NCBI GenBank assembly: GCA_965644495.1
Contig: CBFFSA010000074.1
Location: 1-26,343 of the forward strand
From: Perkinsela sp. CCAP 1560/9
Lineage: Eukaryota; Protista; Euglenozoa: Kinetoplastea
Direction of reading: 5' to 3'
Length of the DNA: 26,343 nucleotides
Positions within the stretch are counted from its first letter, which is position 1. Each line of letters begins with the position of its first letter. Made by a program: the position numbers and the translations under genes. The notes beneath the pieces were generated by a model. That model had not been told where the DNA came from. It saw only the letters and a list, made by a program, of their open reading frames with translations, and did no database searches. Positions 1,350 through 26,343 of this stretch are shown here, piece by piece.

Positions 1350-2301
1350 GAAATCAACGACGAGAGTCTTCCACATACATTAAAAACAACTTGTAAGAAA
1401 ACATTGTTGTAAGAGCTAAAGAAATATATCGCTGATATCCTGAATCTCATCCACTGCCTATATTTACTAGCTAAAGAATATTCGTATTATTGATGCAACT
1501 ATCCGGATGTATATAGCGCGCAAACTATTTCAAAAGCATAATATAAAAATATAATACGTAGTGAAGGGGCTTTGCCCCCTGGCACGCAGCCACTGGTTGG
1601 GGGCTGGTGGGAGGGCATCGCACACTAATAAAAATAACTTGTAAGAGAATGTAAGCTATAAAACTATACACAATCTACATAAAGTTATAATTTAAATCAT
1701 ATTAAAAGATATAATAGAATTCATAATCAGAGATTATGTGCCTCGTAGGGCCATTCGAGAAAAAGGAGTCTTTTCAAATTCGTATTTGTTCTCGTCTAAA
1801 TTTCTTCTCGTAAACTATCATAAGCTTTTTTTTTTTTTTTATGAGTCGCGGCATTGCCTCTATACTTTAACCCAGTAGACGAACCGAGTAGGTCCATTGG
1901 GGGATATACGAGTTGAAAACAAGCAATCAAATTAGCAATTTTATATTGTTTTTATGCAAATAAAGAAAATTTTTCTCTCTCTTTCTCCTCTTTCTCACCT
2001 CTTGACATACTTTTCCCACCTTTCTCCCTACTTTCCTGCTTTCCCCTACCCAACTTTTCAACTTTTCAGGGGGGGTAAGGTCTCCCTCAGCTTCGCCTCA
2101 CCCGGCCTGCAGGCGGCTCCTCAACCATTCGCGCGTTCCGGACCGGGTCTTTCGACCTCTCCACGGCCTGACTTGTGGACCCTTCCCTTGTTATACGGGA
2201 GGGCGCAGGCGCGGGCCTGTGTCGACAGCGACACGGTCGCGAAACAGGATGCTGGCCGACGGGGAGGAGATTCACTACCCGTGTACTACCTCACTTGGGG
2301 T
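1350..2301. repeat. 952-bp direct repeat, copy 1 (copy 2 at 17897-18848)
   Basis: Constant offset of 16547. Only one substitution seen (aaatttcTtctcg vs aaatttcCtctcg), and the internal T15 run has the same length. Confidence 0.95.
1616..1820 (-). repeat. 205-bp leader/terminal repeat 'A', copy 1
   Basis: Near-identical to 18163-18367 and 22643-22847; partial copy at 24562-24679. Confidence 0.92.
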
Positions 2302-2501
2302 ACCTAGCCCTGACGGACTAGGCGTGAGCATAGACTCTGTCGACTCGACCAGCATCCGGGCCAGAGGTATGTGGCCCTGCGCATGGCGTCTTCGCCATGC
2401 CCCTAAGCGCCTTCAAGGGGGGCGTTAGGGTCACTGACAACTATCCTGGAGACCATCATCCGAGCCTGGGAACGCATCAACGTGACATTAAGCTCTTGCA
2501 A
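1826..2501 (-). mobile_element. Non-autonomous polyadenylated structured-RNA retroposon (SINE-like, family S), copy 1
   Basis: Ends in A15 on the minus strand, is flanked by ATAAGC at 1820-1825 and 2502-2507, and has a GC-rich hairpin core at about 2075-2430. Related copies lie at 18373-18848, 23423-23700 and 23704-24270. Confidence 0.55.
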
Positions 2502-2507
2502 ATAAGC

Positions 2508-5003
2508 TTTTTTTTTTTTTTTTAAAAGTAAAGGTCTTAATAAATTTTTTGTATTAAGATCACCTTTACCTTCAGAGTTGCTACTTTTCCGCCTTCATCA
2601 CTTACTACTATTAGACTTTCCCTCCAGAAGTTGGAGCCATTTTTTTTTTACTATAGTGTAATCCTTTCAGGTCAGGGCATCCGGCTTACGTTGTATGTCG
2701 GAAAACGTTGTCTTAATAATTGTATGATATAAACTGCGAATCCTCTTCAAACAATTCTTTTCGTAAACTATGAGACTTCCTACCACGGATTCTCACTGCA
2801 TATTCCATCAAAAAGCGCAAATATCGTCCCCATGGCTTTGGCTCAGGTACTTTCTGAGCTGGCCTAGGAGAATGTTTCCATTCATCTCCTGCAAGAGAAG
2901 TATGAAATCGTTTTCCACCTTGCTGGGCTCAATAGAAATGTTTTCCGCCAGAAGCCGTAGCAGCTCCCGAGTTCGGGCGTGCAATGAGCCACTTGACAGC
3001 ACCGGTAAACAGGCGAATTGCTCCTCGGCGAACATATTCGATGAGACGTATTTGGTGTTTTTCCGCGCGATCGCATCTTTGATTGCCTTCGCCGGTGTTG
3101 TTCCCGCAAGAGATGGTGCCAGATCGTGTACGACGGTGAGATCATAGAAGATTTCACCTGTCGCCCAATAAATAACCAAATCGGGCCCTGAACGGTGTAG
3201 CGTGCTGCCTTTGCATGTCGCAATGTGCTCTCGCCGACGTTCTTCTCGGATCACCTCGGAGCATGATGTGCACACATATGTGGAGAATTGCCGTGGCTCT
3301 AATTCACAAGGAATACCCGCACGCAGACACATATTATGAATATAGCGTACTAGTGCGTTGTGCTTTACCGTTGTATTCATTCCCGCACATCGGACGCAAC
3401 CCGGAATATGTGTAAGGGCAGTGGCACTGTTTAGAAGAACTCTGCATCCGGGGCAGGTGAGAGATTCGGGAAGACGTGGATGGCCCATTCCCAGGCGGGG
3501 CATTACTGCTAAGGTGAATTTCCGCGACGGCACGAGTCGCTCGTTTGCTTGTATCCATGTATAACTACCCTTCTTCGTTGTAGCGTCCATGATTCTTGCA
3601 AATTTCTTGTTCTTCCGAAGGCGCTCCTTCACTTCTTTGTGCATCTTGACTTCGACTGCCGTCATCTCAGCGACAGGTGCAGTGTCCGACTCGCTAGGCG
3701 TGACTTGAGCTGAAAGGAATTTTGGCTGCTCAAAAGCCACACTGCGCGACGCCTGGTACGCGGCCGCTCGGAGTGCATCAGTAGAAGGCAGGCCCAGCCC
3801 ACCCATACGAAGGGGAAGCCTTGCCCAGTCCAGTTGATCTTGCGTCATTGGTCCGAACCATGTCTTCAGAACTTTATCAACTTCGCCGTCAAACTCCTTT
3901 GCCATCGCTTCAGAGGAGTTCGGTGTGTGTGTGCGAATATGAAAACGATGACGAATGTTAACACATTTAGAGAGCAGGATAATAGATACGTTGCTCGCTC
4001 CCATCTGACTTAACCGACGGAAAATTGTTTTATGTTTCTGTAGCTTTTCTAGTAGTAGGGGATCTACCTTTTCGTCTTCTCCCACGTAAGCGCCGAGAAC
4101 CTTGATTGCGTCCTTCTCTACGTTGACTTGCGCCATTCGCAGAACTTCCGGAATTTCCGTGCCCTTCGTTCCTCCGAACCACACACATTTATGATTTGCC
4201 ATTTGCATGTTTCTTTCATTCAACAAATCCCACAGTCTATAAAATGCCTTCGTTAGGAGTGCAGGATCATCCGAAGCAAAGTTTATGTCGTCTATGTATG
4301 CGAATATTTTGATCGAGGGAAATTCTAAGGCCAGCGTTGCGAGGATGGGTTGCATCATTGTACAGAAAAGAAGCGTAGAAAGGGGAGACCCCTGTCGAAC
4401 TCCTGCTGTGCTGAAAACTTTGTCGTGTAACTTTCCGTCTGATCCAAAATACAGCAGCTCCGACGGCTCGGCATATTGAGCGTGAAAAAGCCTCCAGAAC
4501 GGTCGCAAACTAGAGAACGCGAAGAGTGCGTTCGCGATGTCTTGCCTCCAAGGAGTGTTGAATGCATTGCTGATGTCCATTGTTAGGATTGATTGTCCTT
4601 CCTGATAGAGTTTATGTAGGCGGTGTAATACTGTTTCACATCCTGATTTAGTTGCCACTCCGAATTGCCACGGAGCAAAAATCGGCGGCAGACAATGTTC
4701 ATATTTTTGCAACAAGACGATCTCTGCTAATTTTAGAAAAATCTCCCCAACAGCAACCGGGCGCACGTCCCTTCCATTTGCTTTCGGTATGGCGACTAAC
4801 CTTGCCCTCTACAACCTGTCCATCACGTCTTTCGAGATCGCTCCATTTACAACATCCAGTAACATGTGACACAGAGCTGTGCAACAGATTTGATCGTCGA
4901 GCAACAGTCTGACTATACCGTCCGTTGTCCCAGATGGACCGGGTGCCGCGCCCTTGGCCAATCGACGACCTGCCTCGCGGAGTTCTTCCGTTGTTATGAT
5001 CGC
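2508..5003 (-). mobile_element. CRE-like non-LTR retrotransposon CRE-2, 5'-truncated, with 3'UTR and poly(A)
   Basis: RT+RLE ORF, 3'UTR 2524-2807 and T16 tail at 2508-2523. The reading frame extends upstream to about 5003 (EELREAGRRLAKGAAPGPSG) through one in-frame TAG at 4809-4811. Confidence 0.85.
2808..4766 (-). CDS. CRE-clade reverse transcriptase + zinc knuckle + restriction-like endonuclease (partial, probably pseudogenised)
   Basis: Motifs RPVAVGE, QFGV, DISNAFN, GVRQGSPLS, YIDD, LPLRMGGLG, CPGC...HIPGC, KHNALV, PDLVIYW...YDLTV, KNTKY. Confidence 0.9.
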   Translation of the reverse strand: MRPVAVGEIFLKLAEIVLLQKYEHCLPPIFAPWQFGVATKSGCETVLHRLHKLYQEGQSILTMDISNAFNTPWRQDIANALFAFSSLRPFWRLFHAQYAEPSELLYFGSDGKLHDKVFSTAGVRQGSPLSTLLFCTMMQPILATLALEFPSIKIFAYIDDINFASDDPALLTKAFYRLWDLLNERNMQMANHKCVWFGGTKGTEIPEVLRMAQVNVEKDAIKVLGAYVGEDEKVDPLLLEKLQKHKTIFRRLSQMGASNVSIILLSKCVNIRHRFHIRTHTPNSSEAMAKEFDGEVDKVLKTWFGPMTQDQLDWARLPLRMGGLGLPSTDALRAAAYQASRSVAFEQPKFLSAQVTPSESDTAPVAEMTAVEVKMHKEVKERLRKNKKFARIMDATTKKGSYTWIQANERLVPSRKFTLAVMPRLGMGHPRLPESLTCPGCRVLLNSATALTHIPGCVRCAGMNTTVKHNALVRYIHNMCLRAGIPCELEPRQFSTYVCTSCSEVIREERRREHIATCKGSTLHRSGPDLVIYWATGEIFYDLTVVHDLAPSLAGTTPAKAIKDAIARKNTKYVSSNMFAEEQFACLPVLSSGSLHARTRELLRLLAENISIEPSKVENDFILLLQEMNGNILLGQLRKYLSQSHGDDICAF

Positions 5004-5339: not shown

Positions 5340-7320
5340 TTACAACCGAAGTCCTCCCATCCATTTCTCTGCCGGGATGTAGTCTCTGAGTTGAGATACT
5401 ATCGTGTAAGCGGACATCTTCTCAATCTCGAGTTGGAACGCGTTGCGCACGTTATCATAGTTCAGCTTCGCTCTTTGTGAGAGAGCCTTTAATAGGGCCT
5501 TTGTATCAACATGTAGCAGGCCGCAATCTGTTGCGGCCAGACATTTGAATGAATCGCTGTCGACGCCTTTCTCAACCACATATTTCTTGTACTTTCTGTC
5601 GGCGACCTGTTGCATGAGGGCAGAGCTGGTTTGTTTGGCATAGCTAGTACAGCACGTGTGAACCACTGTAAAATCATAGAGCACCTCACCGATGTGAGGC
5701 CACATGATGGCAAGATCTGGGCCGGAACGAATGCGGCGGGCTTTGCAAGGATGTTGCTCGGCGACTTCTGCGGAAATCGTGCACTTACATTTTGTGCAGT
5801 GGTACGAAGAGTAAATGCGCGGTTCGATAACACTAGGCAGGCCTGCTTTTGAGCATAACTCTGCGAGATAACGGACTATGTGTGAATGCTTGCGGGTAGA
5901 GTTCATGCCGGAGCAACGGGAACATCCAGCAACGTGGGGAAGGATGGTTGAAGGAGATTCTTGATTCGAACATCCAGGGCAAATCATTTTGGTCGGTGCT
6001 TTTGGCACGCCGATTCCCAAGCGCATCATGAGCGTGTATCTGAAAAGATACGGGTTAACGTAGTTACTTGTATGTTCGAGGTGAAAATTAGCTTCCTTGG
6101 TGCGCTTCAAGATATTTGTTAAGGTTGAGTCTTTTTGCACTTCAATTAATTGCTTGTCATGCGCTTGGCTCAGGTTCTTTTTAAGAAATTTGCGGGCCTT
6201 TTCCGCGCGGCTCTGAGCTTTAGCTTTGACCTTGCCGCTGCCCTCTGAATCTACCGGAGCGTTATTGGGTTCAAATTGCTCTTCAATAGATTCTCGGGCA
6301 GCTGCGAAGTAATATTGTTGTTTCAGAGTGCAAGAAATCAAGCCTAATCCGCCTAGTTTTTGCGGGAGCGCTGCAAGCTTGAGTGCCTGGACATCGGCGC
6401 CACACCATTTCTGCAGGACCTCGTGTATGTGCTGCTCGAAAGATTGGGCTAGGTAAAGAGTAGCCTCCGGGCGGTGAACTCTTAAATGGTAGTCTTGGCG
6501 TGGAATTGTACAGCGGCGCAAAATCGCCAGAGAGAGGTTACTCGGGCCCATGAGAAGAAGGCGACGAAATAGGCATTTGTGCTTGTTCAATTTGCGCAGG
6601 AGAAGATCTTCTACCACATTGTCTTTGCCGATATAGGCTCCTAGGATCTTTATCGACTCGGTGCAAAGATTAACGCCTAAGTTTTCTAATGAAAAGGGTT
6701 CGCATGACGCACATTTCTGAAAGAATTCACATTTTTGAAAGTTAACGCATAGATTGAGCTCGGCTGTGGTTTCGCGTAAGTGCAGGAACGCCGCTTCGAG
6801 TGATCGCACGTTGGTGGAACTGAGAGTCACGTCGTCTTGGTAGGCTCTTATTTTGACGTCAGGGTATAGGCTTAGGACTTCTCGAAGAGGACCTTGTAAG
6901 AGTGCACAGAAGTACATGGAGGATAGGGATGATCCCTGGCGAATTCCTGAAGAGCTTTCTATGGTTGCAAAAAGGGCATTGTGGGCGAAAAACAATAGTT
7001 CAGATGGCAGGCCGTATTCCAGATAAAACATGCGCATGAAAGGTTTAAACACGGGATTATCTAGTAGTGCCTGGGTTATAGCGTCACGACGTGGAGTGTT
7101 ATACGCATTGCTGAAGTCAACGGTAATCAATGCGTGTCCATTCTCGTATTCACTTAGTAGTTCGTGCACTATCGATTCACACGCGTTCTTGTGGAGTACA
7201 CCTCGTTGGATGGGCGCAAAGTACTTTCGTAGTGCGGCTTCATGTCGCTGAAGTAAAATGGACCCGCAGATTTTGAGGATCGTGTCCCCCATGGCAACCG
7301 GGCGTATACCATTTCGCTGT
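5340..7320 (-). CDS. CRE-clade RT + zinc knuckle + RLE (element CRE-3, C-terminal part; lacks RT domains 0-1)
   Basis: Motifs NGIRPVAMG, DFSNAYN, GIRQGSSLS, YQDD, LPQKLGGLG, CPGC...HVAGC, RKHSHIV, GPDLAIMW...YDFTV, KYKKY. The first ~23 aa of the ORF-track call (up to 7388) are off-frame sequence. Confidence 0.9.
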
Positions 7321-7329
7321 CTGTGTCGC

Positions 7330-8346
7330 GTCTGCTGGTAATTCGAAAACGCAAGGAGCCGCAGGGTGCAGTTTTTGGAGTTTGGCAAATGTTTCTTTAT
7401 CAGATAATTTGTTGATTACAGTGACCTGATCCAGAACTTTTGCCGCTTTTGAGATCGACCCCTCGAGCACAAGGCGTGTGGCTTTTTTTATCGCTCTGCG
7501 ATCAGCGAATTGCCCTTCGTCCGCGTCCTTCTCTCTTTCTTCAAGCTCGGATTGCGTAAGCACTGGGCGACGTCGTCGACTGCGCGCTGACTGCTCTCTT
7601 AATTCTGCCAGCGAGTATTTCATCGCGGAGAGCACCCTGTGCCATATCCGACAGCGGTGAACATAATCACAATCTGCATAATCCCTCATAAGATCGCGGT
7701 AAACCGACACCACGCACGGTATAAATGCAGCGCTTACGTTTCTGACTGTAGGAATAGGTTCGTAATCCAAATCTTCGACTGTTTGCTTCACAGACGGTAT
7801 ATCTTTTGCAGGCGCGACTTGCTCGTCTTGAGCGCCTCTATTCAAAACGTTAATCCATACAATTTTATAGATGCGCACACTTTCCTGAGCAGGAATCGAT
7901 CCCGCGAAGCTTCGTTCCTTGCAGTGTCCTTGTAGGCCGTTGTATTTTACAGTCAGTCTGCGTACACCTGCCCTTGATCTCGCCGTTTGAACTGTGCCAG
8001 CAGAGATGTTTAACAATACTTGTTGGTCGAAACACCACGCTACCACACATTCGTCGCCTTTCCGAGCATTTCTGGTATGTGACTCCACTTCTTGCGGCGT
8101 CAATGGGAACTCAGTCTCAGGTTTCACGTTTGCGCGCATGTCGTCCACAATTTGCGTTAGTCGGTCTGCATTGTTCGTCGAATCTACATTCACTTCATCA
8201 AGCGGCAGGGGCGAGGGTATGCGGCCTGGGCTGGGTGATTGTCCTTTCTCCTCTGACGCGGGTGAGCTGCAGTCGTAGAACTCTTCTGGCTGAATTTCAG
8301 GTTGCGCAACTGGTTTGGACTTGGAGGCAGTTGTTGCTTGTTGTTT
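7330..8346 (-). pseudogene. CRE-like N-terminal region (CRE-3 5' part), 5'-truncated and out of frame with the downstream RT
   Basis: Frame open from about 8346 with no upstream ATG. ECVVAWCFD, FIPCVVSVYRDLMRDY, RAIKKATRLVLEG and KLQKLHP all match CRE-1. Confidence 0.82.
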
Positions 8347-9261: not shown

Positions 9262-9478
9262 AGCGTCGAGGGAGACGTGAGTGGGAAACTATCGATAGGA
9301 CATACATTTTAATTTCGTCTGTTTTAGAAAATAGGATAAACTAAACTCTTCAATTCTTGCAAAAGTGTAACTCATTAAATATTAGACTCATTCCATGTGC
9401 TATATGTTCTTCTATTTTCTTCTAATGGGCAAACTAGATGAGGGCTAAGTATGGTTTGCTTTGAAAATACGGAATTCC

Positions 9479-12477: not shown

Positions 12478-13233
12478 TCAGAATTTTTTCCCTTGCGGTT
12501 TTGTCATCGGGCCCGCGTTTCGCCCTGTTCGGTCGTTTTTTGTATCCATGGCTTTGATCATTGCAGGTAGAATTTTTCCCCGCAGTCCCCCGGTCGTTTT
12601 TGCTTCTTCAAGAGCCTGTGCGAAGACGCGGCAGTCCCCATGCTGAACGCGAACTTTGTAAGCAACCAACGCCGCCAATATGTTGTCCCCGACCGCCATG
12701 TTCCCGTCTGATTTCCATACAAGTCCCATTTTCATTGAGTTTCGCACCCAAGCCAAAAATGCTAGCAACAAATCGTTCTTCCGATGCTCGTCTTGGTGAT
12801 AGCGTGGGGCATTGCGTTCGGCAGCTCCAATACCAAAGTAGCGACGCAAATGAGCGTCCAATTCCACAAAACTACGATCTCGCGTCTCCGAGGGTGCCTC
12901 GATGAACATCGCGTACGTAGATAATTCAAGCGGTTCGAACGTTCCAGTCTCTCGGCCTTCAACACGCTCCATCGCAGCGGAGTAAGGGTCAGTGGCGAGT
13001 TTCTCCACCCCATGTAATCGAGCATTCGTCGGAGGAAACGTAAGCTCGCCAAATTTCGCATAGTCCACCAACATAGTTGTTTTCTCTTCGCCAATCTTCT
13101 TCACCACTCCCTTCCACATTTCTCCACGTGGCACTTTGTCTGAGGACCATAAAACCGCGATAGTGACGCCAACCTGACTCTCGGCCACAAACCGTCCAAT
13201 GCGAGAGTCAGATAGTGGGGGGAGGTCATTCAT
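12478..13233 (-). CDS. Gag-like protein of YR-1
   Basis: First ORF of the element, ATG start, weak similarity to the YR-2 Gag (FEPLELSTYAMFI vs FSVIFPLTWKSYI). No CCHC knuckle. Confidence 0.72.
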   Translation of the reverse strand: MNDLPPLSDSRIGRFVAESQVGVTIAVLWSSDKVPRGEMWKGVVKKIGEEKTTMLVDYAKFGELTFPPTNARLHGVEKLATDPYSAAMERVEGRETGTFEPLELSTYAMFIEAPSETRDRSFVELDAHLRRYFGIGAAERNAPRYHQDEHRKNDLLLAFLAWVRNSMKMGLVWKSDGNMAVGDNILAALVAYKVRVQHGDCRVFAQALEEAKTTGGLRGKILPAMIKAMDTKNDRTGRNAGPMTKPQGKKF

Positions 13234-13473
13234 TGTGCGTTTTTTTTGCTTTGAAAATACGGCTAGGATTACAATGAGCTACACATAATTATCCATCGTT
13301 TACTTCCATACATGTATGAATACGGTGCATTAAAACGATTTCACATTTTTACATGTATTACTCAAAGAGTTCCTGCAATACTAAATATTATAAATAAATG
13401 TTATAAATAAAATAATACGGGCATTTTCTAAAATTTTCATCATGGGCTGAAAAAGGACTACATGTTTTCGTAC

Positions 13474-15350
13474 GTCCCACTTGGGGATTAGCATCCCACA
13501 CGGCGAACATTACCGAGGAAGAACGACTTGTACAAGAAGTAGACAAACGATCAATTCGAAATGCATTGCAAGCAGCAAAGGCAGGAAATCTTGGAAAAGC
13601 TACCCGCATACTCGACAATGTTTACAAGGACTCTGCTCTTCCACTCTGGGAAAAGGTTGACAAACTTCGAGATCTACACCCCAAAGGCCCTACACCTCAA
13701 ACTTCTGATCGAGACTTCCCGCGAATTGCGATATTGGAACCTTCTGAACTTCGTCTAGCGACTGAAAAATTGTCAAAAGGTGCAGCTCCTGGCCCGACAG
13801 GTCTGAGTGAAAGCATGATGCGAATTTTAGTGGAGGACGAAGAATCCTGCCTTTCACTCTGCCACATGCTGAGAGACGTCATAAATGGGGAAGTTGCGAA
13901 AAGTGTCCGAGTAAGATTAACACGATGCAGAATGATAGCCCTTGCAAAACCGAACAATGGAATACGACCGGTTGCAATGGGGGAAACGCTGCTAAAAATT
14001 TGCGGTTGTATCCTCCTTGAGCGCCATGCGAACTCCTTGTCAGACATATTCCAACCGATCCAAAGAGGCATATTACAAAAGAATGCATGTGAGTCCATTG
14101 TACATGAACTTTTGGAAGAGCATGAAGCTGGAGCCACAATTTTGACGATTGATTTCAAGAATGCATACAATACGCCACAACGTACGGCAATAGAAGAAGC
14201 GCTCCTTCAATACCCGGTATTCAAACACTTTATGCGAATGTTCTATTTTGAATATGGTCAACCATCGGAACTTTTATTTTTCGCCAACGACTCATTACAT
14301 TCCGTGATCGAAAGCTCGTCTGGGGTCCGTCAAGGATCAGCACTCTCTTCGGTTTATTTTTGCGCACTGCTACAAGGTCCTTTGAAAGAAATTGCGAAGC
14401 TCTATCCAGAGGTTACTATCAGAGCCTACCAGGACGATGTGACGATGAGCTCCAAAAATGAGTCGTCTTTGGAAGTTGCGTTCCTTCACCTCAAAGAACT
14501 AGCAAGTGGTCTGAATCTTGAAATTAATTCCCGTAAATGCGAAGTATTCCAAGGCAACAGTTCAACGAATAATCGAGGGATGGATCTCAAGGAACTTGGG
14601 GTGGAAGACTGTGTGGATTCCATCAAGGTCCTAGGAGCATACATCGGGCATAATAAAGCCGTTGAACGAAAGCTCTTGGAGAAGTTAGGGAAACATAAAT
14701 GTTTATTTCGAAGACTTCGCGCTATGGGTCCCAGCAACTTGTCACTAGCGATTCTCAAGCGATGTACCATACCCCGTCATGATTACCACCTTCGAGTCCA
14801 CAAACCTGGAGCTTCGTTTCTTCTTGCCCAGGTGTTCGACGAGGAAATCCATGAAATCTTAAAGAAATGGTGTGGTGCAGATAGTGAAGCACTTAAACTC
14901 TCTGCCCTCCCATGTAAAATGGGAGGTCTAGGAATCACCTCAACCGTTCTAAAGCAACGCTACTTTTTCGAAGCGTCCCTAAAATCTATTGATGAGCGAT
15001 CGAAACCCATTAATGCTCCGGTAGATAAGGGAGGCAAGAAACAAGCCGACAGGACACGAACGAATTCACAAGCTGCACGCACCCAGCTAAGAAAGAGCAT
15101 GAAGAATGAACACGAGAAGACAGCAGCAGAATTGAATGCAATACCGAGATTCCAAAATATCATAAAGCGAACGAAGGAGGCGAACAATCACTTAGATTCA
15201 ACGTGCAACTACGTAAATCCATATCTTTTTCGTTACACTCTAATGATGCGCCTAGGAATTGCTCTAAGTAATGTGTCAGGCGAGATTACATGCCCTGGAT
15301 GTGGAACAATCGAAACATCAAGCAAAATCATTCACGATGTGCTGGCATGA
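13474..15350 (+). CDS. CRE-4 reverse transcriptase (separated from its N-terminus; frameshifted in the zinc knuckle)
   Basis: Motifs KLRDLHP, KGAAPGPTG, GIRPVAMGE, DFKNAYN, GVRQGSALS, YQDD, LPCKMGGLG, CPGC. Confidence 0.9.
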
Positions 15351-15910
15351 ATTGCACGAGAAAACATTCTCATTTGGTACGCTATATTGCCGAAATGTGC
15401 TCCAAAGCTGGTCTTCCATGTGCGATCGAACCTCGTATTCATGCGTCCTTTTTTTGCACCAAATGCAAGTGCTCAATTTCCCCAGAAGCGGCGGAATACC
15501 ATCCTTGCCGAGCGCGTCGAATTAGATCTGGCCCAGACCTAGCGATTATGTGGCCAGATGTTGGAGAAATTTTATACGACGTTACCGTGGTACATACGTG
15601 CTGCAGCAGCTATGCAAAGCAGAGCAGCAATGCCCTGCTGCAGAGTGCGGAAGAGCGGAAGATAGCAAAATATGTCAAAGAAAAAGGTCTTGATCCAGAA
15701 TGCTTTCGCTGCATAGCTGTGACAGATTGTGGAGTACTACATGAAGAGACAAAGGTTTTGCTGAAAACATTGGCGAAAAGAAATGATGTTGATTACAAGA
15801 TTGTACGAGAAGCTTTTCAACTTGAACTGGAAAAATATTCAGCCTATGCAGTCGCTCAATTGCGCCAATATATAGAAACCGAGAAATGGGTAGGAGGACT
15901 CCGTCTTTAA
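15332..15910 (+). pseudogene. CRE-4 restriction-like endonuclease domain (after the frameshift)
   Basis: SRCAGMNCTRKHSHLV...CTKCKC...HPC...RSGPDLAIMW...YDVTV...KIAKY...KWVGGLRL is collinear with the CRE-3 C-terminus. A short deletion removed the equivalent of PHVAGC. Confidence 0.88.
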
Positions 15911-17896: not shown

Positions 17897-18848
17897 GAAA
17901 TCAACGACGAGAGTCTTCCACATACATTAAAAACAACTTGTAAGAAAACATTGTTGTAAGAGCTAAAGAAATATATCGCTGATATCCTGAATCTCATCCA
18001 CTGCCTATATTTACTAGCTAAAGAATATTCGTATTATTGATGCAACTATCCGGATGTATATAGCGCGCAAACTATTTCAAAAGCATAATATAAAAATATA
18101 ATACGTAGTGAAGGGGCTTTGCCCCCTGGCACGCAGCCACTGGTTGGGGGCTGGTGGGAGGGCATCGCACACTAATAAAAATAACTTGTAAGAGAATGTA
18201 AGCTATAAAACTATACACAATCTACATAAAGTTATAATTTAAATCATATTAAAAGATATAATAGAATTCATAATCAGAGATTATGTGCCTCGTAGGGCCA
18301 TTCGAGAAAAAGGAGTCTTTTCAAATTCGTATTTGTTCTCGTCTAAATTTCCTCTCGTAAACTATCATAAGCTTTTTTTTTTTTTTTATGAGTCGCGGCA
18401 TTGCCTCTATACTTTAACCCAGTAGACGAACCGAGTAGGTCCATTGGGGGATATACGAGTTGAAAACAAGCAATCAAATTAGCAATTTTATATTGTTTTT
18501 ATGCAAATAAAGAAAATTTTTCTCTCTCTTTCTCCTCTTTCTCACCTCTTGACATACTTTTCCCACCTTTCTCCCTACTTTCCTGCTTTCCCCTACCCAA
18601 CTTTTCAACTTTTCAGGGGGGGTAAGGTCTCCCTCAGCTTCGCCTCACCCGGCCTGCAGGCGGCTCCTCAACCATTCGCGCGTTCCGGACCGGGTCTTTC
18701 GACCTCTCCACGGCCTGACTTGTGGACCCTTCCCTTGTTATACGGGAGGGCGCAGGCGCGGGCCTGTGTCGACAGCGACACGGTCGCGAAACAGGATGCT
18801 GGCCGACGGGGAGGAGATTCACTACCCGTGTACTACCTCACTTGGGGT
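17897..18848. repeat. 952-bp direct repeat, copy 2 (contains leader A at 18163-18367 and a truncated family-S copy at 18373-18848)
   Basis: Near-identical to 1350-2301. Confidence 0.95.
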
Positions 18849-18914: not shown

Positions 18915-20507
18915 CTAAAAAATTCTGCTTATTGGGTCCGCTGGATTTAGTTTCGTAGAAATATAATGAGCTTGAATACATATTCCTTTATTCTTTAAAC
19001 TCTGTAAAATGCTTTTCAATTCTTTCGCTATGCCATCAGACTTGCATATTTTCCGATTCAACGCTGCTCGACAAGACGTATTATCAATCCAAAGCTGAAC
19101 GCAAGTCCCTTGCTCGAAATATTTTTGGAATTCTTCGAGGGCGAATCGCACCGCCGCCGCTTCTGATTTGTTAACTTCGTAGGTCCATTCTGCTGGCCAA
19201 GGTGCGCCCAAAATCTTAACCTCTCCGCTATCCATGTACAGAATTGCTCCCCATCCTTTTGAGGAGGCGTCTGTAAAGAGTTTATGACGCGGAGGTGCAG
19301 TGGCGGGGTGAGGGGGTGCTCTTATCGGCACGTTTTTAATCAAGTCGTCACGCCATTGAGCTAAGATCACACGAGTTTTCATGGGAAGATCCACGATTTT
19401 GTCCTTTGCAAAAGGATGTCGGTTCAAGTAATTAATACGTCGTTGTACTATTTTTATCGCAAAGTGATATTGCGGGATTACCACACCAAGTATCGAAGAG
19501 CAGTACAGTAGACGCCCCACCGCCGCCTCCAGCTCTAAGAAAGTGAGTCTCGAAAAAGTATCCCGTTTCAATTTGCTCACAACCTTCGGTCCCAAGCAGA
19601 CCCGGCTTGATGCGTGATCAAATTTCACTCCGTTGAACACGTATTGTTTCGTCGGAGGAACGTCCTGATCTTTAAATCGAGCTCCTGCCACTCGCGCACG
19701 CGAGTCAATAAAATAAACATACTCGTCTGCATGTTTTCTAGATCCGGAAAAACGAACTCCATCTATATAGATATCAGTAGAACCGTGTTGATACGAGTGG
19801 GATTTTGAGCAATAATCTTTATTTCCTGCCAACGCTGCTGTCATGCAATGCATAATTTCAGGCGCACATCTGTGGCCCATGGGTAAAACATTCATTTCGT
19901 ATAATTGCCCATCTTCTGCACGAAACCGAAACTTTGCTCGGGATCGTAAGGGTAAGCCAACCTGGTAAAAACCACACATTAGATCACGTTTTACCCCCAC
20001 CTCAGCATTTACTGCGTATAAATAACGAGAAGGGTGTAGGAGAGGAACAGCTGGTTCGTAGTCCTTTAGGCGTAAATTGTCTGATCGTGTCCATGAAATA
20101 AAACGTCTTCTGTCTTTGCCCGCGTCGTCTTTTTCAAGGACAGTGAACGGAACCATATATTGCATGGTCGGGCGTCGTTTGGCTTCTTCGGTAGATACCT
20201 TCGATATGACTTTAGACCGAATCAATGCTGGAATGTCTCCTGGAGCCAATGCCGGTTTAATGCAAGGAGCGGACTCAGCTTTCTCGGGCAACTTGGTGAG
20301 TTCATCAAGAACGTACGTTAGCCTATCATTCTGTTGTTCCGTTAGCCACTTCCGTAATTTTTGAACATTCAACGTCGGAATATTATCCTTTGCATGCAAG
20401 GGGATATGGTAGTCGTCGGTTTTAGCTAATTTGGAACTGCGCCTTGGACATAAAATTGAATACGATTTAAGGAAAGGAACCTGTTCGTAAAACTCCTGAA
20501 CCATCAC
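18915..20507 (-). CDS. Reverse transcriptase / RNase H of YR-2
   Basis: RT motifs PFTVLEK...RRRFISW, DLMCGFYQV, VLPMGHRCAP, YIDG, FNGVKFD. RNase H motifs LFTDASSKGWG, EAAAV, IDNTS, NPADPISR. Confidence 0.9.
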   Translation of the reverse strand: MMVQEFYEQVPFLKSYSILCPRRSSKLAKTDDYHIPLHAKDNIPTLNVQKLRKWLTEQQNDRLTYVLDELTKLPEKAESAPCIKPALAPGDIPALIRSKVISKVSTEEAKRRPTMQYMVPFTVLEKDDAGKDRRRFISWTRSDNLRLKDYEPAVPLLHPSRYLYAVNAEVGVKRDLMCGFYQVGLPLRSRAKFRFRAEDGQLYEMNVLPMGHRCAPEIMHCMTAALAGNKDYCSKSHSYQHGSTDIYIDGVRFSGSRKHADEYVYFIDSRARVAGARFKDQDVPPTKQYVFNGVKFDHASSRVCLGPKVVSKLKRDTFSRLTFLELEAAVGRLLYCSSILGVVIPQYHFAIKIVQRRINYLNRHPFAKDKIVDLPMKTRVILAQWRDDLIKNVPIRAPPHPATAPPRHKLFTDASSKGWGAILYMDSGEVKILGAPWPAEWTYEVNKSEAAAVRFALEEFQKYFEQGTCVQLWIDNTSCRAALNRKICKSDGIAKELKSILQSLKNKGICIQAHYISTKLNPADPISRIF

Positions 20508-21679
20508 ATTATCGATGCACCGGGGAGAAGTACTGACACCTTCTGAGTCCCTAACGCTCTTGCCGTAGTTATTTGGTTGGCGTTGTACCGCAGTAGACTT
20601 TCTACGTTCAAGTGCTTTGAGAGATTCATTACTTCCGATAAGTTGAGGTGGCCTTCTACTATTTCCTGAAATAGAAAGGTGATGGCTCCTCTCTTGATTG
20701 AGTGCGTGCCATATCCGTCGCCTAGGACGTCTCGAATATGGAGATCCATCTCCTGAACTGTCGCGGTGCTCATTCGTTGCCCTGGTCGCAGGCTGCTTAC
20801 ATACTGAGCTATTTGGTTTGTGCCCGGACCCGTGATGATCGCGTACATGTACGGTCGGTACGGATTTAGACGAGTGGTCTTCGTGAAACGTCCCCAGTAG
20901 ATTATTATTTCATTCGAATTTACACTCAGAAATTGCTCCCTTCTTAGCTCGGCCGTTTCGGTCCAGCGTGACGCGGCTTTCCAGCATAGCAGGACCGTCA
21001 TTGCTTGTGTTATCGACAGGCGTGTGCACAATTTTTGCAACATGGGAGGTGTTATCGGTTGCATTTGACGTTGTGGTTCCGTGCCCCCCTGGGCCTGAAT
21101 CGCTTTTGTGAACAACTTCAACGGATTGCATTCCATCCCCATCAACGTGAAAACCGTGTGAAGAGCGCGAGCATAATTGAGGCGAGTTGACGGCGCGACG
21201 CGTAGAGTCTGGAGATACAAAATGGCGGTTGCTGAATTCATCTCTCGGTGCTTCACGCGACAAAATTCGTTTACGTTTTTCCATAGGCGTGTTCTGTTGT
21301 TCCAAGTCGACTTTGCCCACATCGGCTGAATCGCTTCGGTCAGCTGGACGGAGTCCGGATCGTCCGGATTTATCCTCAGAATTGCCTGAGTAATGTTTTG
21401 AACTTGGTCGTGGGATACATCGCGACTGTGTTCTCGTTTTAGTCCTCTGACTGTTTGCGAATCTGTGCGGTGCGCGACACGTGTTTGAGGTAAGACCCTT
21501 AGTGGAATCAGTCGTGTGCAAGGATGCATTTTGGTCTGTATTGGGATACGAGTAGTTTTGGGCACACTCCGGGCACTGATTTTGGGAAATTTGGGAGAGC
21601 ACCTCACGAACGAGTTTTGCAAACTTTTCCACGATCTCTTCAATCCAATGACACGAGTAGTTTTTGGGGTGGGGAACAA
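20504..21679 (-). CDS. Tyrosine recombinase of YR-2
   Basis: WKAASRW (R), TKT (K), THSIKRGA (H..R), LSKH (H), LLRYN (Y). Confidence 0.88.
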   Translation of the reverse strand: MFPTPKTTRVIGLKRSWKSLQNSFVRCSPKFPKISARSVPKTTRIPIQTKMHPCTRLIPLRVLPQTRVAHRTDSQTVRGLKREHSRDVSHDQVQNITQAILRINPDDPDSVQLTEAIQPMWAKSTWNNRTRLWKNVNEFCRVKHREMNSATAILYLQTLRVAPSTRLNYARALHTVFTLMGMECNPLKLFTKAIQAQGGTEPQRQMQPITPPMLQKLCTRLSITQAMTVLLCWKAASRWTETAELRREQFLSVNSNEIIIYWGRFTKTTRLNPYRPYMYAIITGPGTNQIAQYVSSLRPGQRMSTATVQEMDLHIRDVLGDGYGTHSIKRGAITFLFQEIVEGHLNLSEVMNLSKHLNVESLLRYNANQITTARALGTQKVSVLLPGASIM

Positions 21680-21682
21680 TCC

Positions 21683-22645
21683 CTAGTGGATTGTCCGTCT
21701 TTCGCTGCGCACCATTTGGTGGGAACGCGCAGCGCCACTCGCCACCCCCCTCTGAAAAATCTGAGTCAAAAGAGGACAGTTAGCACGTATATGACCTGGT
21801 TTACGACAATTATAGCAAACAGGGTTGGCACGGCGAGAAATACGAGTTTGCTTGAGCTGTTCCTCAAGCATCATTTTCCCAAATACGTCATTGGGGTCTT
21901 CCACTTGATGGAGGCGTTGTTGAACACGATCGACTGGCGCTCCAGCAGCTGCCCAATAGTGCGTGCGTAACTCCTCGATCAGCATGGTAGCGATAGCAAC
22001 GAAATCTTCTGTCCAGGTGCCTAGCTCGCGCGCCGCATAAATCCATTTGGTGAGGATAGTAAACAAGCGCTCTCGGATTGGGGGAGGGTTGAAGCGAACA
22101 CCTAATTGAGGAGCATCGCGCAATTCTCTGATCAATTCACGGGGCTTGAAGTCATCTTCAGAGTATATATACGATTTCCATGTCAAGGGGAAGATTACTG
22201 AAAATGCCTTGGGGTTTTCTACGCCCACTTCAGATTGGATAGGATCACTCACCCGTTGTCCACCCGGCATACGTGCTTGAACCTTGACGAAACTGAGATC
22301 GTAATAGCTTATATCCGGGAAAGGAAACGAATATTCAATGTCAGGGTCATCGTCCCATCGCGCTTTAATCTCACTGTTCGGATCTTTTGGATTCTTAAAG
22401 TAGACACGACCTGTAACCGTGTATCGATCCTGGTCCCCTCGCTCCGACCACACTGCTTGAACGAAGACGCGATAACCTCGTGAGAGTAGTAAATTGGTTT
22501 TATCTGCAAATTCTCGCAAAGCTTCTTCGGACAACGGAACGGCATGGCCACCGCCTTGCAGAATCGCCTCAACCTGGCCAGGGTTGAGTGTCTGCTGGTG
22601 ATCACTCGGCGCGGCCGGATCAGGACTGATCGCTCTGGCCGTCAT
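21683..22645 (-). CDS. Gag-like protein of YR-2 with CCHC zinc knuckle
   Basis: CYNCRKPGHIRANC (C-x2-C-x4-H-x4-C); first ORF of the element. Confidence 0.85.
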   Translation of the reverse strand: MTARAISPDPAAPSDHQQTLNPGQVEAILQGGGHAVPLSEEALREFADKTNLLLSRGYRVFVQAVWSERGDQDRYTVTGRVYFKNPKDPNSEIKARWDDDPDIEYSFPFPDISYYDLSFVKVQARMPGGQRVSDPIQSEVGVENPKAFSVIFPLTWKSYIYSEDDFKPRELIRELRDAPQLGVRFNPPPIRERLFTILTKWIYAARELGTWTEDFVAIATMLIEELRTHYWAAAGAPVDRVQQRLHQVEDPNDVFGKMMLEEQLKQTRISRRANPVCYNCRKPGHIRANCPLLTQIFQRGVASGAARSHQMVRSERRTIH

Positions 22646-22847: not shown

Positions 22848-23422
22848 GCATCATCCCAGCGAAAACTCGCTATCCGAAATAAAAGCGTTCGATTTTTTAC
22901 ACTGACTCGCGTAGCGCAAATATGGCGAATGAAATCCTCAGGACTGGACCGAGCAGAAGAGGGTTTTACAGGCTCAAGGTCAGGCGAAAAAGAGGTTATA
23001 CACTTTGTTTTCATGAATGCTAAATGCAAATGGAGGTAGTCTTGCACTAATACAGTCGGCAAAGGTCTGATCCTGTGTATCTGACTCCTTCGTCTCTCCT
23101 CTCATGCTCGGCGCTGGAGTCTCAATGCTTTTGACAACGGAGGATGTAGCCAAGTCCGACGAAGTGGGCGATGGGGCGCTGAATTGCTTTTCTTGAGCTT
23201 CGATCTCCGAGAGCCTTCGTTCGCGCTCCAATCTTTCTTCCGCAGTTGGGAAACCGTGCAGTGTCAGAAGACCTTTCCACACGGTTTTTCCGACGACGCC
23301 AGCAACTTTCCCGAGTGTTTCCAGACGAGAGGGTTCCAGAGTTGTTTGTTCTTTAGCAAAGGAAACCTTTACTCATCTCTACCTCACATTGGGGAACCTT
23401 GCTTCCGAAAAAACAAGTATTC

Positions 23423-23700
23423 TTTTTTTTGCAGTTAATAAGGGGGGAGAAGTATGAATCGCGGCATTGCCTCTATATTTTGACCCAGTAGACGAACCAA
23501 GTAGGTCCATTGGGGGGGAATACGAGTTGAAAACAAGTAAATTTTTTTTTTTTTTATATGATTTTAAAACAAGCAATCAAATTAGCAATTTCATATTTTG
23601 GAGCCCAAAACTAGCAATTCGATCTCCCGTAAGTATAAGAACATTAAAAACAATAACAATAAAAACACTCTTTTTTTAAATACTCTTTACAATAAAAACA
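23423..23700 (-). repeat. Family-S 3' end, truncated copy with short poly(A)
   Basis: Shares ATGAATCGCGGCATTGCCTCTATA...CCCAGTAGACGAACC...GGTCCATTGGGG with 1841-1945 and 23748-23850. Confidence 0.8.
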
Positions 23701-23703
23701 TTC

Positions 23704-24270
23704 TTTTTTTTTTTTTTTTTTTTTGCAATTAATAAGGGGGGAGAAGTATGAATCGCGGCATTGCCTCTATATTTTGACCCAGTAGACGAACCAAGTAGGT
23801 CCATTGGGGGGGGTATACGAGTTAAAAACAAGCAATCAAATTAGCAATTCTTTTTGTTTCCACAGATGTACCTTTTGTTTTTTCTCAGCCCAAAACTAGC
23901 AATTTAATCTCCCCTAAGTATATACTACAAACAAGAAACAGTAAAAACTAAAACAAGCAATACAGACCCAATCCATTCGCGCGTTCCGGACCGGGTCTTT
24001 CGACCACTCCACGGCCTGACTTGTGAACCCTTCCCTTGCTATATGGGAGGGCGCAGGCGCGGGCCTGTGTCGACAGCGACACGGTCGCGAAACAGGATGC
24101 TGGCCGACGGGGAGGAGATTCACTACCCGTGTACTACCTCACTTGGGGTACCTAGCCCTCGCGGGCTAGGCGTGAGCATAGACTCTGTCGACGCGACCAG
24201 CACCCGTGGCCTATGTCACCACCATAGGATCCGTTGGGTCCTACGTCCTCGGACCCAGGACTGTACAGTA
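23704..24270 (-). mobile_element. Family-S structured-RNA retroposon, divergent copy
   Basis: T21 tail, conserved 3' block, and a core at 23973-24206 matching 2125-2358 with scattered substitutions. Confidence 0.6.
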
Positions 24271-24271
24271 C

Positions 24272-24348
24272 AACGCACATAAAGTTCAGCCATCACTTAT
24301 GATTAAGAAAAACTTCTAGAAAAACGTTTAGCAGAAGATAAACTCTAT
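24272..24348. repeat. 77-bp repeat identical to the window end (26267-26343): 5'UTR and first codons of the Cys-rich ORF
   Basis: AACGCACATAAAGTTCAGCCATCAC...GATAAACTCTAT occurs at both sites. Confidence 0.92.
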
Positions 24349-24360
24349 TCCTATATTAAA

Positions 24361-24561
24361 CCCAGATTGAAAGGGGCGAGGGAGATACGAAGCAACAGGC
24401 GTGGCAGATTCCCACTGAAAAGAAATGTTATCTCCCGCACGAAGTTTGTCTCCGAGCTAGAAAGCGCAAAGGCTTTTCTCGTGCGGGGAGATACCATTTC
24501 TTTTCAGTGGGAATCTGCCACGCCTGTTGCTTCGTATCTCCCTCGCCCCTTTCAATCTGGG
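24361..24561. mobile_element. MITE-like foldback element, 201 bp, ~82-bp terminal inverted repeats
   Basis: First 67 bp (CCCAGATTGAAAGGGGCG...AGAAATG) are perfectly inverted at the other end. TTAAA on both flanks (24356-24360, 24562-24566). Confidence 0.85.
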
Positions 24562-24679
24562 TTAAAAGATATAATAGAATTCATAATCAGAGATTATGTG
24601 CCTCGAGGGCCATTAGAGAAAAAGAAGTCTTTTCAAATTCGTATTTGTTCTCGTCTAAATTTCCTCTCGTAAACTATCA
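24562..24679 (-). repeat. Leader repeat A, partial diverged copy 4
   Basis: Matches 1702-1820 with a few differences and ends at the same AAACTATCA boundary. Confidence 0.9.
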
Positions 24680-24949
24680 TGGTTAAAAAATTCTCGATTC
24701 TGATATGGACGAGCATAAAAACTCGCTTTGTCCAACGAATCGTGCAGATTTGAGACGAGAGATCGCTTCTGGGGTCGAAAAATTAGAAGAGGCGCAATAC
24801 GATGTATTTTTGAGGACTTTAAAGAGTGTTTCAACCCGTGTGAAAATTGTGCTGGAGAAAAAAGGTGGAAATTGTGGATACTAACTTTTTTCTTACCAGA
24901 AAAAAAACTTGCAGTTGCCCTTTTTACGGTATTCAGGAGAATGCCAAAA

Positions 24950-25471
24950 ATCCAAAAAATCCAAATCATTCCGGATTGATCCGGATGGTCACTGGCAAGC
25001 CAGACCCTTCACAGACAGATTTGGAAGTTCCGAGGCCGACGTCCTCTACCAGTTTCAGCTTTTCCAAGGCGGCACCAACGTGCTGTTGCCAACACGCTGC
25101 GTCGACGAACTGTGCGTCAACACGGCTTAACCAAGAGGTGTAAGCCTGGTAAGGGAGCTGGTTCCCTGTGGGGAGGGTCCGGGACGGTCCTCCGAGTACT
25201 GGGCCTAGTCCAATCCAAAATCCAAATCATTCCGGATTGCTCCGGATGGTCACTGGCAAGCCAGACCCTTCACAGACAGATTTGGAAGTTCCGAGGCCGA
25301 CGTCCTCTACCAGTTTCAGCTTTTCCAAGGCGGCACCAACGTGCTGTTACCAACACGCTGCGTCGACGAACTGTGCGTCAACATGGCTCACCCAAGAGGT
25401 GTGAGCCGGGTAAGGGAGCTGGTTCCCTGAGGGGAGGGTCCGGGACGGTCCTCCGAGTACTGGGCCTAGTC
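24950..25471. repeat. Tandem duplication of a 261-bp GC-rich, hairpin-rich unit (24950-25210, 25211-25471)
   Basis: CCAAATCATT at 24961 and 25222; GGGCCTAGTC at 25201 and 25462; few substitutions. Confidence 0.93.
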
Positions 25472-25697: not shown

Positions 25698-26288
25698 TTA
25701 CTTCCTTCCTTCAAGCAGGTCTCCAATCTGATCATGGATCATAGCAATTCGCTCTTCCCTTTGCTCCTTAACACTCTTGGCAGCAGTTCCCTTGTAGGTT
25801 GTCCAAATGCGGCGCATCGTCTTTGATAGAACGGGGGCGTCTGCAGAGGGAAGCTCACGACGGAAATATTCGGCTACGGAAGTTGCCGCACGGCTATACA
25901 CTTTCGACTTTCCTACAGTAAAGCTTCGCTGTATAATGCAAAGTACTTGGGACACAAGTGCGAATGTCAACTTCCGTTGGCATACTGTCCACCCTTCGTA
26001 GACACAGCATGCTTCCTGGACTCTCTTTTGGTCCAACCCACGCTTGGCACACTTTGCCACAACTTCAGGACCCAAGGTTTGATGATCTTGCGGCTTATTG
26101 CAAGAGTGGCAAATGTTGCAGCCAACAGGCACGCAAAACTCGGAGCAGTGGCCGCACATTTCAAGTGAGGTGCATTCCTCATTAGTGTGCTCGTTGCCGC
26201 AATCAAGGCAAGAGGAAGGAGTCCGAGCACGGAACTGAGTAACCTTATCGCAGTTAAAACAGTGCAAACGCACATAAAGTTCAGCCAT
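25698..26288 (-). CDS. Hypothetical Cys-rich protein with four CxxC pairs (possible double zinc ribbon)
   Basis: CFNC, CLDC, CGHC and CHSC in the first 65 aa, followed by a helical-looking region. Family not recognised. Confidence 0.55.
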   Translation of the reverse strand: MAELYVRLHCFNCDKVTQFRARTPSSCLDCGNEHTNEECTSLEMCGHCSEFCVPVGCNICHSCNKPQDHQTLGPEVVAKCAKRGLDQKRVQEACCVYEGWTVCQRKLTFALVSQVLCIIQRSFTVGKSKVYSRAATSVAEYFRRELPSADAPVLSKTMRRIWTTYKGTAAKSVKEQREERIAMIHDQIGDLLEGRK

Positions 26289-26343
26289 CACTTATGATTA
26301 AGAAAAACTTCTAGAAAAACGTTTAGCAGAAGATAAACTCTAT

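Follow-up and report, generated by a model that had tools for sequence, protein, structure and literature searches.

In the VIPER retrotransposon of Trypanosoma cruzi, gag occupies positions 169-1509, the tyrosine recombinase (YR) gene positions 1510-2517, and the reverse transcriptase/RNase H (RT/RH) gene positions 1386-4214 (PMC5146736). VIPER elements belong to the order DIRS of YR retrotransposons and have RT/RH alignments of about 950 amino acids (aa) and split direct repeats in the arrangement A1..B1 A2 B2 (PMC6681497; cited papers are represented here and below by excerpts). The element YR-2, located on the minus strand of a 26,343-nt stretch of DNA from Perkinsela sp. CCAP 1560/9 (contig CBFFSA010000074.1, the whole of which was analysed and is called the window below), is by its sequence a YR retrotransposon with the VIPER layout and should work like VIPER. 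This layout has already been published and is hence ordinary for the family; its mode of translation seems undescribed. In its available text, PMC6681497 is silent on translation, slippage and readthrough, and PMC12278014 on frameshift, slippage and readthrough; the recoding survey PMC5009743 names neither DIRS nor VIPER in its first 300,000 characters. A frameshift or readthrough proposal for the VIPER family was not found in the literature searched; the original description of VIPER (Lorenzi 2006) and the Repbase notes may mention one.

Taken together, the data presented below suggest that YR-2 is an element of VIPER layout in which RT would likely be made by -1 frameshifting and YR possibly by readthrough of the gag stop, a reading to which we assign a probability of about 0.65. 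The slip site and fold of YR-2 and the heptamers found across published VIPERs likely represent an undescribed recoding signal.

Stop avoidance in the -1 frame across the recombinase gene

The genes of YR-2 follow the VIPER order gag-YR-RT/RH, with YR and RT/RH overlapping. The RT/RH frame spans the end of gag and the entire YR gene, and the RT and RNase H domains lie at its 3′ end (Table 1). A first-pass annotation, made from the sequence alone, had described a gag end reading CAC TAG GGA TTG TTC CCC with YR following in frame, and a -1 frame open between 21779 and 18915 but for a single TGA at 20910-20912. The stop map agreed on all these coordinates: the -1 frame opens after TAA 21782-21780, stops at TAG 18917-18915 and contains exactly one internal stop, TGA 20912-20910, and the YR frame ends in TGA 20506-20504. 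A second element in the same window, YR-1, has an identical layout with an unbroken RT frame, being only 25% (YR) and 23% (RT) identical to YR-2.

A stop in the -1 frame requires a YR codon that ends in T and precedes AA, AG or GA. In the YR gene of YR-2, T was found at 1 of 56 sites before these dinucleotides versus 68 of 234 sites elsewhere (Fisher p 8.5e-7), and in that of YR-1 at 0 of 77 such sites versus 66 of 209 others. The control regions of YR-2 displayed no significant gap (gag, 20/60 versus 77/182, p 0.14; RT core, 31/97 versus 121/292, p 0.06), and the gag and RT core of YR-1 showed a mild one (p 0.01 and 0.03, respectively). Permutation of the synonymous codons of the YR gene of YR-2 gave a mean of 12.7 stops in the -1 frame, the lowest count among 5000 permutations being 2, as against 1 observed; the corresponding null for YR-1 had a mean of 20.7 stops and a minimum of 7. 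The T counts and the permutations rule out YR codon usage alone as the source of the open -1 frame and bear out the earlier suggestion of selection on both frames.

The avoidance is already evident upstream of the first RT-frame ATG (21284): between the gag stop and this codon, T occupies 0 of 25 stop-prone sites versus 28 of 72 other sites in YR-2 (p 4e-5), and the same span of YR-1 has T at 0 of 38 stop-prone versus 32 of 83 other sites. Stops in the -1 frame are therefore under purifying selection from the gag stop onward and, since they are avoided upstream of the first ATG, entry into the RT frame likely takes place near the gag end and not at an internal AUG.

The single TGA in the RT frame does not characterise the family. 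Other copies of YR-2 were represented by protein calls and short contigs. Arg is present in each of the four sister proteins covering the site (P0002, P0027, P0032, and P0033), and the codon is CGA in contigs of the sequencing runs X3 (depth 93.8/93.8) and X4 (32.2/32.2); runs X1 and X2 have no coverage of the site, and X1-X4 all come from one study, possibly the source of the assembly. The expectation of CGA in intact copies was thus correct and the TGA is not fixed: the YR-2 copy is broken or mis-assembled at this base, and the RT frame of the family is intact in sister copies. Two of the sister proteins, P0032 and P0033 (905 aa, with 3 and 2 residue differences from the YR-2 copy, start excluded), begin at the GTG of a 240-aa open reading frame (ORF) that had been interpreted, rightly on this evidence, as the detached start of the RT frame. 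In relatives at 47-57% identity, the RT frame likewise extends 200-440 codons upstream of the PLH motif.

Candidate slip site and predicted fold at the gag end

Signals for -1 frameshifting have a spacing of 5-9 nt between slip site and structure, and deviations at the P site are tolerated (PMC3542737). In YR-2, a stable predicted structure begins 6 nt 3′ of the candidate slip site G_AUU_UUU. This predicted three-way junction consists of a basal stem (GGGGUGG/CCACCCC), an inner hairpin (21734-21703) and a 9-bp hairpin (21696-21673) with the UAG of gag in its loop. Its energy is -43.1 kcal/mol, with a z-score of -2.63 (-2.21 on repetition, when 3 of 200 shuffles were equally good), and it ranks second among 91 windows of the element. 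The first-pass annotation, which had proposed folding the region 21760-21640 (where the junction, at 21748-21666, was indeed found), reported no canonical slippery heptamer; this holds for X_XXY_YYZ in all 317 gag codons, but the non-canonical site with its correctly spaced fold (21761-21666) had been missed. A possible pseudoknot between GCGAGU 21742-21737 and ACUCGU 21658-21653 was noticed by eye. An Rfam search returned a single chance match, a descriptor of ribozymes like that of hepatitis delta virus gave no match, and a hammerhead core pattern gave three loose matches only.

In a relative (P0081/P0084), the junction sequence as deduced from overlapping-frame protein calls contains G_GAU_UUU, a known -1 frameshift site (PMC5009743), which aligns with the G_AUU_UUU of YR-2 and is followed by a 6-nt spacer and a fold with UAG inside; the basal stem of YR-2 is formed in 3 of 4 resolutions of this sequence, at about -41 to -46 kcal/mol. 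Relatives have in common D/V/I-F in gag and G/D-F-S in the -1 frame at the slip site, and also keep the odd gag tail F-x-x-G-V-A and a PTP/PHP motif after the stop, which encode both arms of the stem. Where a family is known in a single frame (P0183, P0228, and P0078), the junction bases are ambiguous, and the stop of P0183 was imposed, not derived. Among the listed pieces of a diverged collinear contig in run X2, a match of at least 90% to YR-2 is confined to 21758-21733 and one 18-nt patch in gag. A query for longer RT forms produced a single weak match of 1192 aa. Scanning metagenomes for relatives of YR-2 yielded one locus, L001, judged a chance match in bacterial-type DNA, and a viral scan gave no matches.

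Published VIPERs were read by eye, without a shuffled control, in the first three of the six parts of supplementary file 10 of PMC6681497. In all five distinct kinetoplastid copies a canonical heptamer precedes the UGA of gag by 7-14 codons, namely G_GGA_AAC in Bodo saltans, A_AAA_AAA, A_AAA_AAC, and G_GGA_AAC in Crithidia fasciculata, and A_AAA_AAC in T. cruzi, and in all five YR follows the stop in the frame of gag. In T. cruzi, 6 nt separate the heptamer from a perfect 10-bp stem that encloses the stop, and a second copy from this species has this arrangement too. YR-1 has G_GGA_AAA and A_AAA_AAC within its gag/RT overlap.

The slip site, the fold at 6 nt, the junction of the relative and the VIPER heptamers together point to -1 frameshifting, and the RT of YR-2 is likely made in this way, by a programmed shift near the end of gag. 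Most ribosomes would terminate at the UAG and yield Gag (320 aa). Some would pause at the fold, slip by -1 on G_AUU_UUU and pass the stop in the other frame, producing a fusion of about 1240 aa in which a linker of about 400 aa, for the most part YR gene sequence read in the other frame, joins Gag to RT/RNase H. A few could read through UAG-G into the in-frame YR to give a Gag-YR protein of about 713 aa, so that a single mRNA would encode three proteins with a common Gag N-terminus. If frameshifting is indeed used, RT should be annotated as a Gag fusion and not as a free ORF, and this group of retrotransposons joins the known users of -1 frameshifting. With a slip site and fold located, the unexplained layout becomes a simple question for a reporter assay.

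Several observations weigh against frameshifting. Besides the lack of a canonical heptamer in gag, G_AUU_UUU is a poor site for tandem slippage, with poor P-site re-pairing from AUU to GAU, and relaxed slip sites are common (7 in the 317 codons of gag). The z-score of the fold is modest, and a stronger fold, the strongest local one of the element, lies just upstream (21880-21771, z -3.6, 0 of 200 shuffles). The canonical heptamers of YR-1 are not followed by a stable fold (z +0.1 to +0.9). The P0081/P0084 junction joins calls from different copies, with one conflict at codon 36, and one of its four resolutions folds differently. As to the kinetoplastid copies, their heptamers were identified by eye, in one copy from C. 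fasciculata the heptamer is in phase with the knuckle and not with the first ATG, and the openness of the -1 frame is documented by published coordinates for a single species, T. cruzi. Strong folds are present elsewhere in YR-1 (12110-11921, z -2.5 to -3.5).

Translation routes for reverse transcriptase and recombinase

For YR, the chances of UAG readthrough appear about even; termination-reinitiation is possible but less probable, and synthesis from a separate trans-spliced mRNA is rather unlikely. The gag stop is followed by G (UAG GGA), as in gammaretroviral type III readthrough, and no AUG and no stop occur for 51 (YR-2) or 128 (YR-1) codons after it (base-shuffle P 0.047 and 0/113, respectively). 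Single-ORF forms reported for the TATE elements of B. saltans (PMC6681497) were also counted in favour of readthrough. On the other side, the openness of the YR leader is not significant under the synonymous-codon null (P 0.15 for YR-2 and 0.08 for YR-1), no stable nested fold was detected in stretches of 60-180 nt 3′ of the gag stop (z +0.5 to +0.9; pseudoknots are outside the folding model), and the stop is followed directly by AUG in T. cruzi and, at a distance of one codon, by AUG or GUG in P0081/P0084. The gammaretroviral analogy drawn in the first-pass annotation is thus right as to UAG-G but weak, no stable nested fold having been detected 3′ of the stop. The position of YR in the frame of gag is not independent evidence of readthrough, because it follows from the -1 shift and the fixed phase between YR and RT. 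Among the best 150 of 596 matches to a Gag+YR query no close natural fusion was found, and P0084 crosses the gag/YR junction only via an apparent frame error.

The alternative that survives best retains the -1 frameshift for RT and lets YR be made separately, by reinitiation at an NUG that lies one codon beyond the gag stop and is UUG in YR-2. We regard it as unlikely. An NUG is present at +4 to +6 both in YR-2 and in P0081/P0084 (AUG or GUG), the YR calls P0077, P0043, and P0092 begin with M-[PL]-PTP at this position, the T. cruzi VIPER reads UGA AUG (by eye), and near-cognate codons are usable in reinitiation (PMC3542737, PMC10275272). However, an NUG directly after the stop is absent from YR-1 and, by eye, from the four kinetoplastid copies other than T. 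cruzi, and UGGGA, motif 1 of the termination upstream ribosomal binding site, does not occur within 90 nt upstream of the gag stop, the nearest copy being at 21881.

It is improbable that no recoding takes place and that RT and YR are translated from their own AUG or GUG on separate mRNAs trans-spliced at new acceptors. Trypanosomatid mRNAs are trans-spliced (PMC6681497), alternative RT starts have been mentioned for the T. cruzi VIPER (PMC5146736), and the named relatives of YR-2 are euglenozoan (Papus ankaliazontas and Diplonema papillatum, two of the ten clusters looked up; another was named only 'integrase'). A candidate acceptor on the minus strand at 21783-21752, with a branch-point-like CTAAC, a pyrimidine tract and two CAG, overlaps the slip site, and GTG 21632 is flanked by A at -3 and G at +4. 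Nevertheless, the CTAAC doubles as the Ala-Asn codons of the zinc knuckle, and translation from this acceptor would first meet an AUG of the gag frame (21715), with no RT-frame AUG for about 470 nt. Separate mRNAs would also leave unexplained why all five kinetoplastid copies and YR-1 carry heptamers in a constant position of the gag frame.

Translation of RT from ATG 20504 by TGATG stop-start coupling, with the open -1 frame as a by-product of YR codon usage, is very improbable: the overlap does exist in YR-2 and such coupling is known for SART1 (PMC10275272), but codon usage is rejected as the cause of the openness, any in-phase TGA preceded by A automatically yields ATG, and a Met 33-38 residues before PLH, found in 5 of the 13 families listed (YR-2, P0003, P0004, P0006, and P0020), is absent from the other 8 (P0005, P0007, P0009, P0010, P0011, P0012, P0024, and P0025) and from YR-1, so that an RT start at the end of YR is not conserved. 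As the sole route, coupling is largely refuted, and it may be no more than a side route.

More tentatively, one could hypothesise that in VIPER-type elements generally the RNA element at the end of gag acts as a three-way switch between termination (Gag), -1 frameshifting (Gag-RT) and readthrough (Gag-YR). Such a switch would account for the 1.2-kb double-coded overlap of the family and would represent a nuclear-encoded frameshift and readthrough signal in euglenozoans, including the T. cruzi VIPER.

Coordinates, neighbourhood and relation to known systems

Table 1. Coordinates in the window of the features of YR-2 and of the second element, YR-1
Feature	Position	Strand	Remarks
gag-like ORF	22645-21683	-	320 aa, TAG stop; zf-CCHC PF00098, E 4.9e-6, at residues 276-291
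gag stop	21685-21683	-	context UAG GGA UUG; UAG deduced also for relative P0081/P0084
Tyrosine recombinase (YR) frame	21682-20504	-	392 codons, same phase as gag, first ATG 21529
RT/RNase H frame	21779-18915	-	-1 to gag, 954 codons, first ATG 21284
Candidate -1 slip site G_AUU_UUU	21761-21755	-	putative; in phase with gag, 23 codons upstream of the stop and immediately 3′ of the zinc knuckle
Predicted three-way junction	21748-21666	-	begins 6 nt 3′ of the slip site, encloses the gag stop
RT-frame TGA	20912-20910	-	private to the YR-2 copy or its assembly
TGATG	20506-20502	-	YR stop overlapping RT-frame ATG 20504-20502; not conserved across relatives
Direct repeat A1	22847-22643	-	ends in the gag ATG; 99.5% over 205 bp to 18163-18367
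Direct repeat A2	18367-18163	-	partner of A1
3′ repeat region B1	18905-18368	-	other copies at 1821-2301 and, partly, 23420-24211
YR-1	13278-9479	-	G_GGA_AAA at 12580, A_AAA_AAC at 12541, stop UGA-C

Motif inspection located the catalytic pattern R..HxKRG..H..Y of the recombinase at about 20968, 20704, 20614, and 20587, and YR-2 has the R-H-R-H-Y catalytic set and no DDE integrase. Its YR has no Pfam match of its own and, as a profile against PDB, matched integrases weakly (E 0.06-0.09); it is related to that of YR-1 (25% identity, E 5.6e-12), which matches PF00589, as do 4 of 20 aligned YR relatives. The RT frame contains RT_RNaseH (PF17917, E 9.5e-7), a weak RVT_1 match (E 0.03), and the motifs YIDG at 19769 and TDAS at 19274. 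At its start (21683-21560, minus strand), PHP..SC, a predicted amphipathic helix and CxxC form a candidate small metal-binding module in the Gag-RT linker; the corresponding start has PHP..CSC, helix and CxC in P0020/P0227/P0228, and CxxC in P0003/P0004.

A comparison of repeats within the window revealed no B2 repeat after A2. Regions 1350-2301 and 17897-18848 form a 952-bp duplicate (99.9%), an ORF-free solo unit of B, A and flank comparable to SIRE, which accompanies VIPER. A1 is separated from the B-like repeats upstream of it by about 550 bp (23400-22848, minus strand) that contain a 100-aa ORF (22980-23282). By eye, YR-1 has an 18-bp direct repeat (minus strand) just before its gag ATG (13245-13262) and just after its RT stop (9455-9472). 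Packed around the YR elements are non-long-terminal-repeat elements at 2808-4808, 5340-8346, and 13416-15910 (with RVT_1 matches), and probably also at 1-1353, whose Cys-rich, endonuclease-like C-termini look CRE/SLACS-like by eye. A 197-aa Cys-rich ORF without a Pfam match occupies 25698-26291 (minus strand), its 5′ leader and start being repeated at 24265-24348, and regions 24949-25471 and 24338-24584 contain a tandem pair of 261-bp copies (96%) together with a 99-bp inverted repeat.

Among the systems compared, the VIPERs of T. cruzi, C. fasciculata and B. saltans share with YR-2 a YR in frame after the gag stop and an RT/RH of about 950 codons in a -1 frame that opens inside gag, as well as the CCHC knuckle, the A1/A2 part of the split direct repeats, and a heptamer or slip site with a stem near the gag stop (by eye in VIPER). 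YR-2 differs in having UAG instead of UGA, a U-rich non-canonical slip site, a predicted three-way junction in place of a simple stem, no B2 repeat found and, compared with T. cruzi, no AUG after the stop. A quick tree, which had long branches, lacked named VIPER proteins and was not used for placement, put YR-2 in a clade of 12 rows with a Shimodaira-Hasegawa-like approximate likelihood ratio test support of 100.

TATE elements and the YR elements of D. papillatum have the gene order of YR-2, and the D. papillatum calls are 31-33% (RT) and 28% (YR) identical to it. Unlike YR-2, some of these elements have a single ORF (TATE of B. saltans and, unless joined by the gene predictor, D. papillatum), and the TATE Gag has no clear CCHC. 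In D. papillatum, the calls P0186, P0248, and P0249 combine YR and RT in one protein; they are either true fusions or gene-predictor joins across recoding sites. DIRS-1 and Ngaro resemble YR-2 in having a YR in place of an integrase, and a long YR/RT overlap occurs in half of 28 DIRS1-like elements (PMC3266345). Assignment of YR-2 to the DIRS1-like elements was rejected, as its flanking repeats are direct, not inverted, and its RT frame ends after RNase H without a methyltransferase; Ngaro was rejected for its order gag-RT-YR, YR of YR-2 preceding the RT core.

Retroviral and umbraviral -1 signals resemble that of YR-2 in the slip site after the nucleocapsid knuckle, the 6-nt spacer and the GC-rich stem, and pea enation mosaic virus uses G_GAU_UUU, the site deduced for the relative of YR-2. 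Gammaretroviral readthrough shares UAG followed by G, with a compact pseudoknot 8 nt 3′ of the stop that was not seen in YR-2 under a folding model without pseudoknots. Unlike in all these viral signals, both events would act in YR-2 at one gag end and on two overlapping frames.

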